This document shows, one piece after another, positions 12,571 through 21,350 of a DNA stretch of 64,000 nt. How positions within the stretch are numbered: position 1 is the first letter of the stretch; each line of letters starts with the position of its first letter. The notes below the pieces were generated by a model that was not told the origin of the DNA, did no database searches, and saw only the letters and a program-made list of their open reading frames with translations. Source of the stretch: Chloroflexota bacterium (GTDB lineage: Bacteria; Chloroflexota; Limnocylindria; Limnocylindrales; CSP1-4); contig JAICUI010000003.1 in NCBI GenBank assembly GCA_025935925.1, positions 13,018 to 77,017 of the forward strand. The letters run 5' to 3'. The translations under genes and the position numbers were made by a program.

Positions 12571-13110
12571 ATGACGCGTGACGAGCTGATCCTCCGGACC
12601 CGCCAGCTGATCGCCGAGGGCGAGCGCCTCGACGCCCAGCCCTCGCTCACCGCCCTCCAGACGTGGCTCCAGCTGTCGGACGACCTGCTCGCGACCGCGT
12701 GGGGATCGATGGACCGCTATCACCTCGCGTGGCTGCTGGTCGGCAAGCCGAAGGACACGATCCGCGGGCGCGCGCTGACGGCCGCCGAGGAGGCCGCGTA
12801 CGTCCGCGAGGTGGCCGTGCAGAAGACCGCCGCGCTCCGGATGAGCCTCGACGCCGTCGAGCGGCAGGGCATGCCGTTCCGTGGCGAGACCGGTGGGATC
12901 GCCGCGGGCCAGGGGATGGGCGAGGTGCCGTCGACCGAGCCGCTCGACCGTCCGGGGACGGACCGTCACGAGCACCCGCAGCTCGAGTCCCGCCGCTCGA
13001 TCCCGCTCGACGCCGACCTCCAGGCGCGTCTCGACGCCGCCCGCCGCGCCGCGGCCGAGCACCCGGACCACGTCCGCCGGGCGCCGCGACCCGAGAAGCT
13101 CCAGCGGTGA
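12571..13110 (+). CDS. Hypothetical protein
   Basis: 179 aa, helical N-terminal domain, GC3 bias. Confidence 0.75.
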   Translation: MTRDELILRTRQLIAEGERLDAQPSLTALQTWLQLSDDLLATAWGSMDRYHLAWLLVGKPKDTIRGRALTAAEEAAYVREVAVQKTAALRMSLDAVERQGMPFRGETGGIAAGQGMGEVPSTEPLDRPGTDRHEHPQLESRRSIPLDADLQARLDAARRAAAEHPDHVRRAPRPEKLQR

Positions 13111-13135: not shown

Positions 13136-13645
13136 TCAGCGGGCCCGATAGGCAGCAACCAATGCGCCCACGACCAGCGCCGCCGGCGCGACGAGCCAGT
13201 ACCGCTCGGCGACGTACGGCACGTAGCCCATCACGCCGCCCTGGGTGAGCCCGTACAGCCAGTCGAGGAGCGTGCCGGCGACGACGGACCAGCCGCCGAG
13301 GAACGCCGCGGTCGCCATCCGGGTCTGTGACGCGCGGATCGCCGCGTCGCGACCCTTGTAGACCAGCGCGACCGCCGTCGCCCAGCCCACGAACGCGGCG
13401 ACGGCGACGAGCCCGAACCCGAGGTCCAGCAGCCCGAGCACGAAGAACGCGACCGCGCCGGCATCCGCCACGATGACCGCGGCGATGATCCAGCGGGACC
13501 CGCCGCCGGCCGAGGTCGCCGCCGGCGATGCCGCCGCGCCCGACTCGGCCGCCGCCGCGTACCGGTCGCCGGGCGCACGCTCCAGGCGCCGTCGCTCGCC
13601 GCCGTCGCTGGGCGGGCGGGTCGCTGGGTCGGGTCCCGTGGCCAT
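13136..13645 (-). CDS. Hypothetical membrane protein (about 4 TM)
   Basis: Several hydrophobic segments; ATG start. Confidence 0.75.
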   Translation of the reverse strand: MATGPDPATRPPSDGGERRRLERAPGDRYAAAAESGAAASPAATSAGGGSRWIIAAVIVADAGAVAFFVLGLLDLGFGLVAVAAFVGWATAVALVYKGRDAAIRASQTRMATAAFLGGWSVVAGTLLDWLYGLTQGGVMGYVPYVAERYWLVAPAALVVGALVAAYRAR

Positions 13646-13690
13646 GGCCTGATGCTACGCGCGGCGACCCGGCACGGTATCCTCGCCGCC

Positions 13691-14179
13691 GTGAGCCATC
13701 CGACGCTCGGCAAGCCGCCGCGCAGCCTCCACGCCGGGTTTCCGGACGGCGCCGCGCGCCTTCGCTCGATGCGCGCCCCGCTCGCCGTCCGTGCGCTGGA
13801 GATCGCGGTCGACGCCGACCCGACCCTCAACATCCGCTACGACGAGCCCGGCCTGCGGAACCTGCTGCGCGACGCCGAGGTGTTCGTCGAGCGCCTCGCG
13901 CTGTGCGTCGCGGCCGACGATCCGTACTTCCTCGAGCACTTCGCCGATCAGACCGCGACGATCTTCCGTCGGCGCCTCGTGCCGATGGACGACGTGAGCC
14001 GGATCCTCGAAGGCCTCCGGTCGGGCGCCCGGGGAATCCTGTCGCCGGCCGAGATCGGCGCGGCCGATCGGGGCATCGACGCCGCCATCGCCGTGTACGC
14101 CTGGTATCGCCAGATCGCAGGCGACCCGCGCAAGAAGAACCCGATCCTGCAGGCGATCTACAAGGGGATCGGCTCGTGA
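13691..14179 (+). CDS. Globin/phycobiliprotein-fold-like protein of unknown function
   Basis: YDEPGLRNLLRDAEVFVERLALCVAADDP..LVPMDDVSRIL aligns by eye, in register, with allophycocyanin helices. Start 13652 or 13691. Confidence 0.75.
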   Translation: MSHPTLGKPPRSLHAGFPDGAARLRSMRAPLAVRALEIAVDADPTLNIRYDEPGLRNLLRDAEVFVERLALCVAADDPYFLEHFADQTATIFRRRLVPMDDVSRILEGLRSGARGILSPAEIGAADRGIDAAIAVYAWYRQIAGDPRKKNPILQAIYKGIGS

Positions 14180-14505
14180 CCATCAAGTGGGTCAAGGTCG
14201 ACCCCCTGGTCATGAACGGCGAGCCGTTCTGCTACGGCACGCGACTCACCGTCCGCCAGGTCCTGGAGCTGCGCCGCAACGGCTACGCCCTCGTCGACCT
14301 CCTGAAGGACCATCCCGAGCTGCGGCTCATGGGAATCGCCTCGGCGTACGCGTACGCGGCCGACCATCGCGATCACTACGCCGACTTCTTCGAGGCCGAC
14401 GGGTCGCTCGTGGGGCCCGGCTACACCGCCGACGAGGCCGCCGCGCTGCCCGAGCGGCTGCGGATCCCGGGCATCGTCGTCAAGGCCGTGGCGACACCCG
14501 TCTAG
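14176..14505 (+). CDS. DUF433 domain protein
   Basis: VDPLVMNGEPFCYGTRLTVRQVLELRRNG....LLKDHPEL; GTGA overlap with the upstream gene. Confidence 0.85.
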   Translation: MTIKWVKVDPLVMNGEPFCYGTRLTVRQVLELRRNGYALVDLLKDHPELRLMGIASAYAYAADHRDHYADFFEADGSLVGPGYTADEAAALPERLRIPGIVVKAVATPV

Positions 14506-14993
14506 CGGGCCTGATCCTCGGGCTTCACGTACGGCCCCATCACCACGACCTCGGCGGTCTGCTCCGAGCCGTCGGGCGACCGGACGACGAACGCGTGGTG
14601 GAGTTCCGCCGAACCCGACGCGAGCGTCGACCCGACCGAGCAGTACTTGCGGCTCGACAGGTCGATCGCGCGGCGGACGGCCGCGAGGTCCAGGCCCTCG
14701 CCGTCGAGGACGTGGACGACGTCGAAGCGGACGAACGCGTGCGGGTTGGTCTCGCGCTGACGCCCGGTGACGCGGATCTGGTAGCCCGTGACCGGCTGGC
14801 GCTGCTTGCGCAGGATCGCGATGACGTCGATCGCGGTGCAGCCGCCGAGCGCGATCCCGACGAGCTCGGCGGGGCTCGGCGCGTCCGCGATGTCCGAACC
14901 TCCCTCCATCGCGATCCTCGCGCCCGCGGCCGTCGTCGCCTCGAAGCGGGAGTCGCCGGTCAGCGTGATCGTCGCCACCTTGGTCGTGCTCAT
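14502..14993 (-). CDS. OsmC/YhfA-family protein
   Basis: PSPAELVGIALGGCTAIDV...AIDLSSRKYCSVG (two Cys). Start 14993 or 15005. Confidence 0.88.
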   Translation of the reverse strand: MSTTKVATITLTGDSRFEATTAAGARIAMEGGSDIADAPSPAELVGIALGGCTAIDVIAILRKQRQPVTGYQIRVTGRQRETNPHAFVRFDVVHVLDGEGLDLAAVRRAIDLSSRKYCSVGSTLASGSAELHHAFVVRSPDGSEQTAEVVVMGPYVKPEDQAR

Positions 14994-15063
14994 GACCGCC
15001 ATCATGCCGCCCGCGCGCAGGCCGGGTGCCCCGGCTCGGCATTCCCGACCATCGTGCTAGGAT

Positions 15064-15408
15064 TTGGCCACGATGACCGAGACGCAGCAGCCCGCCCAGC
15101 CCGCGACCGCCGACCCCGGGTTCGACGCGCAGCGGCGCGCCACCGAGCTCGCGATCCTCGACGCGTTGCGTGCGGTCGTGGACCCGGAGATCGGGATGAA
15201 CGTCGTCGAGCTGGCCCTGATCAAGCAGATCCTGCTCGGCCAGCAGGAAACCGAGATCAAGATGATCCTCACGACGCCGTTCTGCCCGTACGCCGGCGCG
15301 ATGATCCAGCAGGTGCGCGAGCAGGCCGAGAGCGTCGTCGAGCACCCGGTCAAGGTCACGCTGCTGGCCGAGCGCTGGGACCCCCGCGACGCGGGGCTGA
15401 TGTGGTGA
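15064..15408 (+). CDS. DUF59/SufT-like metal-sulfur cluster assembly factor
   Basis: VVDPEIGMNVVEL...LTTPFCP...WDP motif. Confidence 0.88.
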   Translation: MATMTETQQPAQPATADPGFDAQRRATELAILDALRAVVDPEIGMNVVELALIKQILLGQQETEIKMILTTPFCPYAGAMIQQVREQAESVVEHPVKVTLLAERWDPRDAGLMW

Positions 15409-15428
15409 CCCCGCCACCAGCGCGCGCG

Positions 15429-16085
15429 ATGAGCCAGCGCCTCGACTACCGCTCGGCGGTCGCCACCGGCCGCGGCGATGACGGCACCACGGGTCTCCTG
15501 TTCGGCGGCGAGCGTGTCGCCAAGGACGACCTGCGCACCGAGGCCTACGGGACGGTCGACGAGGCCGTGGCGGCGATGGGCCTCGCGCGGGTCGAGCTCG
15601 CCGAGGCGGGCGCGACCGAGCTCACGGCCACGATCCTCAGGCTCCAGCGCGAGCTGTTCGTCGTCGGCGCGGAGCTCGCGACCAACCCGGACGCCCGGGA
15701 CCGGGCACGCGACGACGTGACCCGCGTGTCGCAGGCGATGGTCGACGGCGTCGACGCGCTGCTCCGCGAGGCCGAAGCCGGCATCGAGCTCCCGCACGAG
15801 TTCATCGTCCCCGGCGAGACGCGCGCCTCGGCCGCGCTCGAGGTCGCGAGGACGCTCCTCCGCCGCGCCGAGCGCCGGACCGTGACGCTCGCGCGCGAGG
15901 ACGCCGCGATTGCCGAGGGCCGTACCCTTCCGTACCTGAACCGCCTCGCCGACCTGCTGTGGATCCTGGCGCGAGCCGCCGAGCAGGCCGAATCGAAGAC
16001 CTCCGTCGCCGCCCGTCCGGATCGACGGCGCGGCCCGTCCCCCGACCCGGCACCAACACCCGAAGGAGCAGGAGCACCGACATGA
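15429..16085 (+). CDS. PduO-type cob(I)alamin adenosyltransferase
   Basis: TGRGDDGTTGL..G.RVAKDD.RTEAYGTVDEA; ARTLLRRAERR; YLNRLADLLW. Lies within track ORF 14187..16085. Confidence 0.9.
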   Translation: MSQRLDYRSAVATGRGDDGTTGLLFGGERVAKDDLRTEAYGTVDEAVAAMGLARVELAEAGATELTATILRLQRELFVVGAELATNPDARDRARDDVTRVSQAMVDGVDALLREAEAGIELPHEFIVPGETRASAALEVARTLLRRAERRTVTLAREDAAIAEGRTLPYLNRLADLLWILARAAEQAESKTSVAARPDRRRGPSPDPAPTPEGAGAPT

Positions 16086-17120: not shown

Positions 17121-20100
17121 TTACGCCGCGCCGAGGACCACGCGCTGCTCGGCCGTCCCGGCGAGCAGCCCCTCCACCGCGAGCTCGGGGAGCGGCCGCG
17201 AGAACCAGTAGCCCTGGCCACGGTCGCAGTCGAGCTCGCGCAGCGAGGCGAGCTGGGCGAGCGTCTCGATACCCTCCGCGACGACGTCGATCCCGAGCCC
17301 GTGGGCGAGCGAGACCACCGCCTGGATGATCGGCAGGTCGGCGGGATCGGAGCCCAGCCCCGAGACGAATGACCGGTCGACCTTGATCGTGTCCAGCGGC
17401 AGCCGCCGCAGGTAGCTCAGCGACGAGTATCCCGTTCCGAAGTCGTCCAGCACGAGCCTGACGCCGAGCGCCCGCAGCCCGCGCAGCCGCTCGATCGACG
17501 CCTCCGACTGGTCCATCACCACGCTCTCGGTGATCTCCAGCTCGAGCGAGCCCGGGGCGAGCCCTGCCTGGTCGAGGATCCTCGCGACGTCCCCGATCAG
17601 CCCTGACTCGGCGAACTGCCGCGCCGACAGGTTGACGCTGACGGCCAGCCGCGACGCCGACGGGAACCGCCGCTGCCAGCCCCGCACCGTGTGGCACGCG
17701 GTCTCGAGCACCCACCGCCCGATCGGCAGGATGAGCCCCGTCTCCTCGGCGAGCGGGATGAACGACAGCGGCGGCACGAGGCCGCGCGTCGGATGCTCCC
17801 AGCGCAGCAGCGCCTCGACACCCACGACGGTCCCCGACCCGAGCTCGACGAGCGGCTGGTAGTGGAGGCGCAGCTCGGAGCGCTCGAGCGCCCGCCGCAG
17901 GTCGTGCTCCATCGTCGCGCGGTCGAGCGTCTGGGCGTGCATCTCCGGATCGAACACGATGGACTTGCGGATCGGGTCCGCCTTCGCCCGGTGGAGCGCG
18001 ATCTCGGCCTGCTTCAGCAGCTCGAGCGGCTGGTGGACCGTCGCCGTCGCGGCCGCGATGCCGAGGCTGGCGCCGACGGAGACCTCCGTCCCGTCGAGGT
18101 CGAACGGGACGCCGATGGTCGCCTCGATGCGGGCGGCGACGCGTTCCGCCTCGCGCACGCTGCGGACGGGACCGAGCAGGATCCCGAACTCGTCGGACCC
18201 GAGCCGTGCCACGGTGTCGGTGGTCCGAGCCGCGCCCACGAGCCGCTGCGCGACCTGCGCGAGCAGGATGTCGCCCGCCGCGTGCCCCAGGCTCTCGTTG
18301 ACGACCTTGAACCGGTCGAGGTCGAGCAGCACCAGCGCGACCCGCCGCGCGCCGCCGCGACGCGGCTCCTGCTCGCGCGCGGCCGCCTCGATCTGCTCGG
18401 CGAGGCGATTGAGCAGCAGCGTCCGGTTCGGCAGCCCGGTCAGGTGATCGTGAAGGGCGGCGTGGGCGCGGCGCCGGACCTCGGTCTGCGCCCGCTCGAA
18501 CAGCCGCGCGTTGTCGAGCGCGATCGACGCCAGCTGCCCGAACCGCGCCAGCGCCTCGACCTCGCGCACCGAGAACGGCCGCGACGCGTCGCCCGACGCG
18601 AGGCCGATGACGCCGAGGACCTCGTCGCCCGAGGTCAGTGGCACCGCGCACATCGCGCCGAACCCGTCGGAGTGCGCGTCGTGGATCCGGTCCGCGTACT
18701 CCTGGTAGTCGTCGACGACGACCGGTTGCCCGGAGCGCACGACCTCCCACGTCACGCCCTTGCCGCGCGGCATGTGGTACCCGACGTAGCTCTCGAAGAC
18801 GCCCGTCCCGACGCGCGCGACGAGGTCCAGCGCGCCGTCCGACGCCTCGGGCCCCTCGAGCAGGTACAGGAAGCCGTGCTTCACGCCGACGAGGCCAGCG
18901 GCGCGCTCGACGATCTCGCCCAGCAGCTCCGCGGGCTCGAGCCGCTCGAGCATCCGGAGCGTCGTCTGGTCGACCGCCGCGAGGTACAGGTCGCGCGTCG
19001 GGTCGTCGTTCGGGAGCCGCACGCGGTTCGGCGGCTTCGCGAGGTACAGCGCCCGGTCGGCCGCCGAGACGAGCTCGTCCTTCTCGCGTCCGTCGTCCGG
19101 ATGGAGCGCGATGCCGGCGCTGACCGTCACGATCGGTCCCGTGCTCGCCGTCAGCGGCGCCACGGCGGCACGGACACGCTCCGCGACCTCCCGCGCGCCG
19201 GCGCCGTCGGTGTCGGGCAGCAGCACCGCGAACTCGTCGCCGCCGTAGCGGTACACCCGGTCTCCCTCGCGGATCGCCTCGCGCATCGCCGTGGCGATCC
19301 GCACGAGCAGGGCGTCGCCGGCCGGGTGGCCGTGGGTGTCGTTGTAGGCCTTGAACGCGTCGAGGTCGAGCATCACGAGCGCGAACGCCGTCCCGCGCTC
19401 GATGAGCGCCCCGAGCTCGCGCTGGAACGCGCCGTGGTTGCGGAGCCCGGTCAGCGCGTCGTGGTCCGCGAGGGTCACGACGGCGCCATGCGCCTCGGCG
19501 TTGCGGAGGGCGATGGACGCCTGCGCCGCGAACAGCTGCACGAGCTCGAACTCGTCGCGGTTGAAGTGCGATTCCTCGCCGCCCATCCGGGCGATGTTCA
19601 GGGTCCCGATGACCTCGCCCGCTACGAGCAGCGGGCACACGATCATCGACTCCGGCTCCTCCGGCGTCCCCGGGATGTTGATCGAGCGGGGGTCGACGTG
19701 GGCGTCGTTGGCCAGCACCGCCTCGGCGTTCCGGATCACCCAGCCCGTGATCCCGGCATCGAGCGGCCCCTCGTGCTGGAGGATCACGTCGGCGAACCGG
19801 TCGCGCGAGACGACGGCGCGCCTGACCATCGCCGCCCGGTCGACGCGGTAGATCGTCAGCGAGTCGTAGGCCACGACCGCCTTCAGCGAGTCGGCGATCA
19901 TCTCCAGCACGCCGCTCTGGTCCAGGGTCGCGAGCAGCCGCTCGTTGATCTCCAGCAGCCGGCGCTGGCTCTCGAGCCGGTGGCGCAGCTCGACCTGCTG
20001 GCTGTGCACCTGGCCGAAGGCCTCGGCGTTGATCATCGCCTGCGCCGCGTACCCGGCGAAGATCTCGAGCGTCCGCTGGTCGTCCTCGCTGTACTGGTCG

Positions 20101-21125
20101 AAGCCCGCCTTCGACACGACGATGGCGCCCAGGACGCGGGACTCGTACGCCATCGGCACGAGGAGCATGGATTCGGGGCCCCGGCTGCCGCCGACCTGGA
20201 GGCCTCGCCCGTCGGACCCGGCGTCCCCGAGCCGGATCGTGCGGTTGTGGAGCGCGACCCAGCCCGTCAGGCCCTCGCCGACCTTCACGCGGAGCATCTG
20301 GGCCGACGGCGTCCCGATGCCCATGAACTCGCCCTGGAACGCGATCGGCTCGCACCATTGGGTGGCCGGGTCGACGCGATAGACGCGGATCGTGTCGTGG
20401 CGGATCAGCCGGTCCGCCTCGGCGACGATCGCCTCGCCGATGCCCTGCACGTCCTGGATCCTGTTCAGGCGCGAGCTCAGCTCCTGGATCGCGCGGAGAC
20501 GCGCCGCGCCGTCGCGGACGGTGTTGAACAGGCGGGCATTCGCGACGGCGATCGCCATCTGGTTCGCGAAGGTGCGGACGAGCTCGAGCTCGTCGGGCGA
20601 CCAGTCGTACGGCGTGCGGTGGTAGAGCACGAGGAGGCCCATCGCCTCGTCCCGGAACAGCAGCGGGACGAAGTGGATCGTGCGGTACCCGTTGCGGGCG
20701 TAGACCTCCGCGAAGTGCGGCGCCGAGGCGGGGTCGTCGACGACGATGCTGCGGCGCTCCCGGATCGCGACGAGCCCGAGGACCGGCGAGTCGTGCGGGA
20801 TCTGGCCGACGGCGTCGACGAGCTCCTGCGGCAGGTCGTGGTGCGACGCCAGGCGGAACGGGAAGCGGTTGGGCGTGAGGAGCCACAGGCCCGCGGCGTC
20901 GGTGCCGAACAGCTGTCGGGTGGACTCGAGGACGTCGTCGAAGACCTCGTCGAGCTCGAGGTTCGCGCTGACCTCGGCGACGACCCGCCGGAGCGCCGCC
21001 GCCCGGACGTCCTCGGTCCGCGCGGCCTCGACGACGTCCCGTGGGCGTGCCGGGACCGCGCGGTCGGCGGGGCGCGCGGACGCGCCCTGCCGTCGGTTCC
21101 CGGTTCGGTTGTCGGCGAGCGTCAT
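17121..21125 (-). CDS. c-di-GMP signalling protein: GAF-GAF-GAF-GGDEF-GAF-GGDEF(GSDEF)-EAL
   Basis: Four GAF segments ending in A.IA..NA.; DLDAFKAYNDTHGH..REGD..RYGGDEF; second domain DLDRFKVVNESLGH..RLGSDEF; EALLRW and DDFGTGYSSL. Confidence 0.93.
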   Translation of the reverse strand: MTLADNRTGNRRQGASARPADRAVPARPRDVVEAARTEDVRAAALRRVVAEVSANLELDEVFDDVLESTRQLFGTDAAGLWLLTPNRFPFRLASHHDLPQELVDAVGQIPHDSPVLGLVAIRERRSIVVDDPASAPHFAEVYARNGYRTIHFVPLLFRDEAMGLLVLYHRTPYDWSPDELELVRTFANQMAIAVANARLFNTVRDGAARLRAIQELSSRLNRIQDVQGIGEAIVAEADRLIRHDTIRVYRVDPATQWCEPIAFQGEFMGIGTPSAQMLRVKVGEGLTGWVALHNRTIRLGDAGSDGRGLQVGGSRGPESMLLVPMAYESRVLGAIVVSKAGFDQYSEDDQRTLEIFAGYAAQAMINAEAFGQVHSQQVELRHRLESQRRLLEINERLLATLDQSGVLEMIADSLKAVVAYDSLTIYRVDRAAMVRRAVVSRDRFADVILQHEGPLDAGITGWVIRNAEAVLANDAHVDPRSINIPGTPEEPESMIVCPLLVAGEVIGTLNIARMGGEESHFNRDEFELVQLFAAQASIALRNAEAHGAVVTLADHDALTGLRNHGAFQRELGALIERGTAFALVMLDLDAFKAYNDTHGHPAGDALLVRIATAMREAIREGDRVYRYGGDEFAVLLPDTDGAGAREVAERVRAAVAPLTASTGPIVTVSAGIALHPDDGREKDELVSAADRALYLAKPPNRVRLPNDDPTRDLYLAAVDQTTLRMLERLEPAELLGEIVERAAGLVGVKHGFLYLLEGPEASDGALDLVARVGTGVFESYVGYHMPRGKGVTWEVVRSGQPVVVDDYQEYADRIHDAHSDGFGAMCAVPLTSGDEVLGVIGLASGDASRPFSVREVEALARFGQLASIALDNARLFERAQTEVRRRAHAALHDHLTGLPNRTLLLNRLAEQIEAAAREQEPRRGGARRVALVLLDLDRFKVVNESLGHAAGDILLAQVAQRLVGAARTTDTVARLGSDEFGILLGPVRSVREAERVAARIEATIGVPFDLDGTEVSVGASLGIAAATATVHQPLELLKQAEIALHRAKADPIRKSIVFDPEMHAQTLDRATMEHDLRRALERSELRLHYQPLVELGSGTVVGVEALLRWEHPTRGLVPPLSFIPLAEETGLILPIGRWVLETACHTVRGWQRRFPSASRLAVSVNLSARQFAESGLIGDVARILDQAGLAPGSLELEITESVVMDQSEASIERLRGLRALGVRLVLDDFGTGYSSLSYLRRLPLDTIKVDRSFVSGLGSDPADLPIIQAVVSLAHGLGIDVVAEGIETLAQLASLRELDCDRGQGYWFSRPLPELAVEGLLAGTAEQRVVLGAA

Positions 21126-21350
21126 GCAGGCCTTGTCGACGGGACGCCTCGCGGGCAACGGGGACCGCCCACGGCCGAGGTGTCACGCCGCACCGTACCG
21201 ATGGCCGGGGCGCGGAACGATAGTCCGGACGTACCCCCACGGCTGGGGACCCGTCTGGGGCGCCGGTCGGTGTCGCGTGCGCCGGGCCGCGGTTCGGCGC
21301 GAGAATGCGCGTGGGGGGTGCCGTGGCGGCACCGGCCAGGAGGCGTCGAG

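Follow-up and report, generated by a model that had tools for sequence, protein, structure and literature searches.

A stand-alone, cysteine-less globin of the phycobiliprotein superfamily and its constant DUF433 partner gene in Limnocylindrales

The window analysed in this study is a stretch of 64,000 nucleotides from a bacterium of the order Limnocylindrales (Chloroflexota; assembly GCA_025935925.1, contig JAICUI010000003.1, positions 13,018 to 77,017), and it contains at positions 13691–14179 of the + strand a globin gene of 162 amino acids (GTG start, stop codon included), which we delimited and assigned on the basis of its open reading frame, the starts of its homologues, an AlphaFold2 model compared by Foldseek, and hhalign. 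The encoded protein is homologous to phycobiliproteins and lacks the cysteine to which bilin is attached. The combination of this globin with an obligate DUF433 gene is the most distinctive feature of the locus, and it was absent from an earlier note made on the same DNA from sequence alone. We read the gene as that for a stand-alone, Cys-less globin of the bilin-binding superfamily, on the side of the photoglobins and of BBAG-2 (one of the bilin biosynthesis-associated globins, or BBAGs), which may serve as a non-covalent sensor that controls its DUF433 partner, and we give this reading about an even chance of being correct.

Fold and homology of the globin

The window globin alone had no match in Pfam at E ≤ 1 and none in NCBIfam, it falls below the gathering threshold of the Pfam family PF00502 (Phycobilisome), and its phmmer matches in PDB were only weak. 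We found 266 relatives among 5.8 billion proteins; those named by their source are all designated "hypothetical" (for example, HEU0244757.1 of Candidatus Limnocylindrales). PF00502 was matched by 14 of 31 close homologues (E ≤ 10), some of which pass the threshold marginally, with the best score being that of P0107 (26.0 bits versus a cut-off of 22.2, E = 9.9e-6). Alignment with hhalign of a diverse family alignment (A2) to four phycobiliproteins, one sequence of which was checked against PDB (allophycocyanin alpha, E = 1.3e-100), yielded a match of 65% and E = 6.1e-5 over 118 columns. It placed C81-L-R-D of ApcA opposite L58-L59-R60-D61 and Y116 of ApcA opposite F92, with the helix end (GDP/DDP) and the aromatic residue that precedes the F-G loop also in register, and it thereby reproduced the register that had been proposed by eye in the earlier note. 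The aligned region begins only at approximately phycobiliprotein residue 36, leaving the X-Y hairpin unmatched. Residues are numbered here from the GTG codon at 13691; in the longer open frame of 175 amino acids described below, all numbers are higher by 13.

The AlphaFold2 model of the globin had a mean predicted local distance difference test (pLDDT) score of 83, with values of >90 for the core (residues 31–156 in the 175-amino acid numbering). The top 50 Foldseek matches of this model in PDB were nearly all allophycocyanin, phycocyanin, phycoerythrin, or smURFP, with template modelling (TM) scores of 0.55–0.81 and a root mean square deviation (rmsd) of ~2 Å over ~125 residues for matches of the phycobiliprotein type. 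The globin domain of a photocobilin (8J2W/8J2X) was also among the matches, with an identity of 25–28%, and no RsbR-type globin was present in the top 50. The structure comparison suggested in the earlier note thus returned a globin-like model with phycobiliprotein matches and, together with the PF00502 matches of the relatives and the hhalign result, bore out the proposed fold and homology. The resemblance of the window globin to phycobiliproteins is more than chance.

A true light-harvesting phycobiliprotein would share the fold and the weak PF00502 matches of the relatives, and the globin indeed resembles this class (PF00502; allophycocyanin 1B33) in a core that superposes at ~2 Å and in an xxRD motif in register. 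However, it has no attachment cysteine and no matched X-Y hairpin, its identity to these proteins is 13–20%, and it is accompanied by no lyases, bilin synthesis, or photosystems. Genes for type II reaction centres (PF00124) were found in none of 28 genomes of the order (0/28), the earlier note having described the window as without photosynthesis genes. Given also the closer kinship of the globin to photoglobins, we consider this explanation ruled out, its probability being practically nil.

The best PDB matches of the family profile were the globin domains of the biliverdin (BV)–binding photocobilin SasPcob (8J2W/8J2X, E = 0.002); the profile also matched a photoglobin-B12 fusion in one genome (G226) with E = 8.4e-12, and hhalign of the family against photoglobin domains gave 97.5% and E = 7.8e-12 over 117 columns. 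On these profile comparisons, the nearest known relatives are photoglobins and the photocobilin globin domain, not the light-harvesting phycobiliproteins (65%, E = 6e-5). BBAG-1, -2, and -3 have been described as phycobiliprotein paralogues of heterotrophic bacteria, with BBAG-2 being placed in the photoglobin lineage and yielding adducts with BV upon acid denaturation (Rockwell, Martin & Lagarias 2023, PMC10151467). Like BBAG-2, the window globin is without a CxRD motif and occurs in a heterotrophic bacterium. The suggestion of the earlier note that the protein may be informative about phycobiliprotein ancestry therefore holds in that the homology is real, but, given that the closest relatives are photoglobin and photocobilin globins and not allophycocyanin, it mostly restates the conclusions of Rockwell et al. 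(PMC10151467).

Residues of the predicted pocket

The codons for L58-L59-R60-D61, the counterpart of the C-x-R-D bilin motif, lie at positions 13862–13873 (+ strand), as determined with hhalign, alignment of the family hidden Markov model (HMM) to 8J2W, and column counts, the latter being based on 50 unique sequences of the globin family. The position equivalent to the attachment cysteine, where Leu58 faces Cys81 of ApcA, is occupied by L, F, V, I, or R and never by C, S, or T. The earlier note had read the chromophore cysteine as leucine and the adjacent Arg-Asp as retained, and both readings were confirmed: R60-D61 align with the Arg-Asp of CxRD, and D61, as well as R49, R93, D101, G144, and D145, is invariant (50/50). 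In the HMM alignment, Asp61 corresponds to the BV-binding Asp270 of SasPcob, for which the index in the chain is the published number minus 6, an offset verified by means of Trp296 and of the His that replaces Asp in AbPcob. Position 92, which aligns with the Tyr of phycobiliproteins, is F, Y, W, M, or L in the family alignments. A linear tetrapyrrole that is protonated, carries propionates, and is bound without a covalent link, as in SasPcob, would suit the invariant Asp61 and the Arg residues around it.

Photoglobins and photocobilins thus share with the window globin the same fold, the lack of an attachment cysteine, and the same pyrrole-binding Asp. The conserved Asp in the third core helix of photoglobins (D49, equivalent to D83 of phycocyanin) is matched by D61 in all 50 sequences, the hydrophobic residue of their fourth helix (L80, equivalent to Y115 of phycocyanin) is matched by F92, and an Arg is found at the pocket position of Arg297 in AbPcob. 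Unlike photoglobins and photocobilins, however, the family has two strongly conserved, family-specific segments, HPxLGxPP at the N-terminus and GD..K.N......YKG at the C-terminus, both of which are invariant here and were modelled at low confidence, and the Trp that contacts the corrin is not conserved. The latter residue, Trp296 of SasPcob, contacts both the D ring of the bilin and the corrin (Zhang et al. 2024, PMC10979010; PDB 8J2W, 8J2X, and 8J2Y for SasPcob and AbPcob). Its equivalent is position 87 (100 in the 175-amino acid numbering), which is Trp in 20 of the 50 sequences. The subclade that includes the window globin has Gln, His, or Met at position 87 and, unlike the rest of the family, an invariant Cys72, and this difference may reflect a change in the pocket within the family.

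Two other candidate sites in the protein were considered and rejected. Cys72 (Cys85 in the 175-amino acid numbering) was evaluated as an alternative attachment site, but it is invariant only in close relatives, with the family-wide column containing C, A, and S in 21, 16, and 13 sequences, respectively. The N-terminal His was evaluated as a metal site of the amino-terminal Cu(II)- and Ni(II)-binding (ATCUN) type, but it is internal in members with N-terminal extensions.

The DUF433 partner gene and distribution of the pair

The partner gene (DUF433/COG2442; PF04255, E = 1.4e-12, 47.7 bits) extends from 14176 to 14505 on the + strand and encodes 109 amino acids, with its GTG start overlapping the stop codon of the globin gene (GTGA). 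A DUF433 gene is located directly downstream of the globin gene in all loci, comprising 30 genome loci and five divergent metagenome contigs, and the same arrangement was found on three long metagenome contigs. The two genes are separated by 0–11 nucleotides in most loci and often overlap. On the five divergent contigs, the globins are 36–46% identical to that of the window, and the downstream open reading frame begins with MTIKWVKxDPLV. The DUF433 protein is better conserved than the globin (59–83% versus 36–70% identity). Such a constant partner distinguishes the family from photoglobins and photocobilins, being mentioned in neither of the corresponding reports (PMC8717448, PMC10979010). A phmmer search of PDB with the DUF433 protein returned nothing relevant.

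All 28 genomes of the order were found to encode the DUF433 orthologue, and 27 of them also the globin. The one exception has its DUF433 gene at base 35 of a contig, so that the globin gene is cut off by the contig end. Sister families of the class, represented by 18 genomes, had neither the globin nor the DUF433 orthologue (0/18). The pair is single-copy, occupies the same genomic position across the order, and is flanked by nothing mobile. Four of the genomes that carry it are streamlined, being only 1.1–1.4 Mb in size, and its presence in every genome of the order, including these, argues for an important function. [quoted passage not shown] In one assembly (G178, contigs C1 and C2, loci L030 and L033), the stretch containing the globin, DUF433, DUF59, and PduO genes occurs twice with identical scores; the second copy is probably an artefact of assembly, not a genuine paralogue.

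Members of DUF433/COG2442 are known chiefly as antitoxins of PIN toxins, and a survey in 2009 reported no neighbour of COG2442 genes other than PIN (Makarova et al. 2009, PMC2701414). The only biochemically studied COG2442 member that we found in the literature is VapB10, which recognises an inverted repeat within its own promoter, with this binding being abolished by its PIN partner (PMC3834315). The globin–DUF433 pair resembles COG2442-PIN VapBC pairs (PMC2701414; VapBC10, PMC3834315) in the close coupling of a small DUF433 protein to a second protein and in the predicted cotranscription of the two genes. It differs in that the partner is a globin rather than a PIN nuclease, in its reversed gene order, and in its vertical, not mobile, inheritance. 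No PIN domain was matched in any neighbour gene of the locus with Pfam. The overlap of the genes and the established role of the DUF433 family (PMC2701414) would also be compatible with a toxin-antitoxin–like system, with DUF433 as antitoxin and the globin-fold protein as a new toxin. The pair is nevertheless single-copy and at the same position in every genome of the order, is retained in genomes of 1.1–1.4 Mb with nothing mobile beside it, and has a gene order opposite to that of vapBC. We also know of no toxic activity of the globin fold, and we regard the toxin-antitoxin explanation as scarcely credible.

Start site and upstream region

The frame that contains the globin gene is open from an ATG at 13652 to 14179 (+ strand; 175 amino acids), and it contains all the peptides cited in the earlier note. 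The homologues begin with M/V-SHP, which corresponds to the GTG at 13691, and many orthologues open with ATG- or GTG-AGC-CAT-CC. The in-frame upstream extension (13652–13690, + strand), which is sometimes included by gene callers, has a pLDDT of <50 and is probably not translated. A –10-like TAnnnT hexamer, TATCCT, is present at 13678–13683 (+ strand), 7 nucleotides before the GTG start, and such hexamers (TATCCT, TAGACT, TACCCT, or TACGCT) precede the GTG or ATG of the globin gene by 6–8 nucleotides in 22 of 33 loci (31 distinct sequences). A Shine-Dalgarno sequence is absent before the globin start in these TAnnnT loci. As judged from these sequence features, the globin mRNA would appear to be leaderless, and, given that the spacing between hexamer and start is a signature of leaderless mRNAs, we took 13691–14179 (162 amino acids) as the gene. 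Gene calls of 173–175 amino acids with an "MLR..." extension are suggested to be over-extended. An Rfam scan of the window revealed no riboswitch or other RNA family.

Neighbouring genes and relation to B12 proteins

Upstream of the globin gene, the window encodes a soluble protein of 179 amino acids (12571–13110, + strand), which belongs to no Pfam or NCBIfam family and is found across the class with 39–78% identity, and a protein of 169 amino acids (13136–13645, – strand), which also belongs to no Pfam or NCBIfam family and has a hydrophobic, apparently membrane-spanning COOH-terminal half. The latter gene is divergent from and located just upstream of the globin gene in many CSP1-4–like genomes. 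Downstream of the DUF433 gene lies a gene for an OsmC-like peroxiredoxin (14502–15005, – strand), which is found between the DUF433 and DUF59 genes only in genus-level relatives and is absent from other genera. It is followed at 15064–16085 (+ strand) by genes for a DUF59/FeS_assembly_P protein, a PduO-type ATP:cob(I)alamin adenosyltransferase, and a Bax1-I membrane protein. Further downstream (17121–21158, – strand), a multi-GAF protein of ~1345 amino acids with two GGDEF domains and an EAL domain is encoded, and this gene is syntenic in relatives. The DUF59 and PduO genes are syntenic throughout the order, and the backbone is conserved class-wide, including in genomes without the globin pair. 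The two genes were considered as functional partners of the globin and rejected: given that sister-family genomes devoid of the globin share the up179-DUF59-PduO backbone, the apparent link to adenosylcobalamin synthesis is background synteny.

Stand-alone photoglobins are "almost always" adjacent to genes for B12-binding proteins (Schneider et al. 2021, PMC8717448). Unlike photoglobins, the window globin is neither fused nor adjacent to B12-binding_2 or B12-binding domains, and no B12 domain was found within the conserved globin locus. Outside the window, on contig C10 of the same genome (G000; L037:1417–2121, + strand), we found a gene for a stand-alone cobalamin-binding protein of the CarH type (B12-binding_2 plus B12-binding). 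This protein has the Wx9EH and DxHxxG (DEHHVIG) motifs and no DNA-binding domain, and its gene lies beside an opposite-strand gene of the methylmalonyl-CoA-mutase type. Together with the PduO-type adenosyltransferase 1.3 kb downstream, it raises the question of a split photocobilin, in which the globin would be the trans partner of a separate CarH-type B12-binding protein, as for most stand-alone photoglobins. However, only five of the 28 pair-carrying genomes have clear orthologues of this B12 module, the four small genomes have none, and the B12 gene is never adjacent to the globin gene. The DUF59-PduO segment, moreover, is background synteny seen also in globin-less sister genomes, and the corrin-touching Trp of SasPcob is Gln in the window globin. 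With orthologues of the contig C10 module in five of 28 genomes only, a split photocobilin is largely ruled out as the general mechanism, and we consider it highly improbable.

Discussion

The superfamily and lineage of the window globin were already known; its constant DUF433 partner, its independence of B12, and the lack of bilin synthesis are not described in the papers that we consulted. In the mechanism that we propose, the globin would bind a small ligand non-covalently in a pocket bounded by the helices on which Asp61 and Phe92/Arg93/Arg95 are located, with this ligand most likely being a linear tetrapyrrole of the biliverdin type. It would assemble into a complex with the protein encoded by the downstream, translationally coupled DUF433/COG2442 gene, a putative DNA-binding protein of the three-helix type. 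The state of the ligand, possibly influenced by light, would then change the globin-DUF433 complex and thereby alter transcription. By analogy with VapB10 and its PIN partner, we propose that the globin receives the signal and in turn modulates the DUF433 protein; it may take the place of the PIN toxin in COG2442-PIN pairs and so constitute a two-protein sensor-regulator switch.

Several observations weigh against this proposal. Canonical heme oxygenase (PF01126) was found in none of 46 genomes, and ferredoxin-dependent bilin reductase (PF05996), HemS/ChuS, and HugZ-type DUF2470 proteins were each found in none of 28 genomes, with IsdG/MhuD-type enzymes not being searched for. Positive controls responded in the searches for heme oxygenase, bilin reductase, HemS, HugZ, and reaction-centre genes. 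The globin family thus differs from BBAGs, which are linked to heme oxygenase and pre-PcyA reductases, in having neither (0/46 and 0/28 genomes, respectively). A search of the genomes for heme oxygenase and bilin reductase genes had been suggested in the earlier note, and its outcome is negative; the absence of any bilin-making enzyme tested is a serious objection to a tetrapyrrole ligand. In addition, the equivalent of Trp296 is Gln in the window globin and Gln, His, or Met in its own subclade. An AlphaFold2 model of the DUF433 protein, obtained with a five-sequence alignment, had a pLDDT of 69 and gave no meaningful Foldseek match, and visual inspection of the loci upstream of the promoter revealed no conserved palindrome resembling an operator.

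The inference of the earlier note, that of a non-covalent tetrapyrrole-binding or sensor globin, would still be the best reading, but it has to contend with the lack of bilin-enzyme genes in 28 genomes. The main alternative is that the protein has the same fold but no tetrapyrrole, being a ligand-free or otherwise liganded (for example, with a lipid, as in RsbR-type non-heme globins) interaction module for the DUF433 protein in which the invariant Asp and Arg residues would maintain the structure or contact the partner. In favour of this alternative, all four of the families for bilin production or heme degradation that were examined are absent from 28 genomes, including very small ones, and the conserved HPxLGxPP and GDxxKxN...YKG segments are modelled at low confidence, as expected of interface peptides. 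On the other hand, the Asp that holds the bilin pyrroles in phycobiliproteins and photocobilin is invariant (50/50), invariant Arg residues able to bind carboxylates flank the pocket helices, and the top 50 Foldseek matches included no RsbR-type globin. We therefore regard a module without tetrapyrrole as rather unlikely, although it deserves serious consideration. Given that no bilin-making enzyme was found, our confidence in a non-covalent bilin-type sensor that controls the DUF433 partner is held at about even.

More tentatively, and with clearly less confidence, the globin–DUF433 pair might represent an undescribed class of gene switch: a B12-independent sensor of an exogenous or non-enzymatic bilin (possibly light-dependent), or of another ligand, that signals to a COG2442 DNA-binding protein. 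Such a bilin might derive, for instance, from heme damage or from neighbouring cyanobacteria, and the module might be indispensable in freshwater Limnocylindraceae with genomes of 1.1 Mb.

Non-cyanobacterial bilin-binding globins were recognised only between 2021 and 2024, as partners of either B12-based light sensors (photocobilins) or genes for bilin synthesis (BBAGs). The family described here fits neither pattern, having no B12 domain, heme oxygenase, or bilin reductase, and its strictly conserved DUF433 partner comes from a family known almost solely for antitoxins of PIN toxins. The pair is retained by all genomes of an order that is abundant in soil and freshwater, with the host of the window being a non-photosynthetic soil bacterium. 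Should the pair prove to be a transcription switch governed by a ligand or by light, DUF433 would gain a second physiological role, and the phycobiliprotein superfamily would gain a new functional branch as well as a compact two-component sensor that is of interest as an optogenetic or near-infrared tool.
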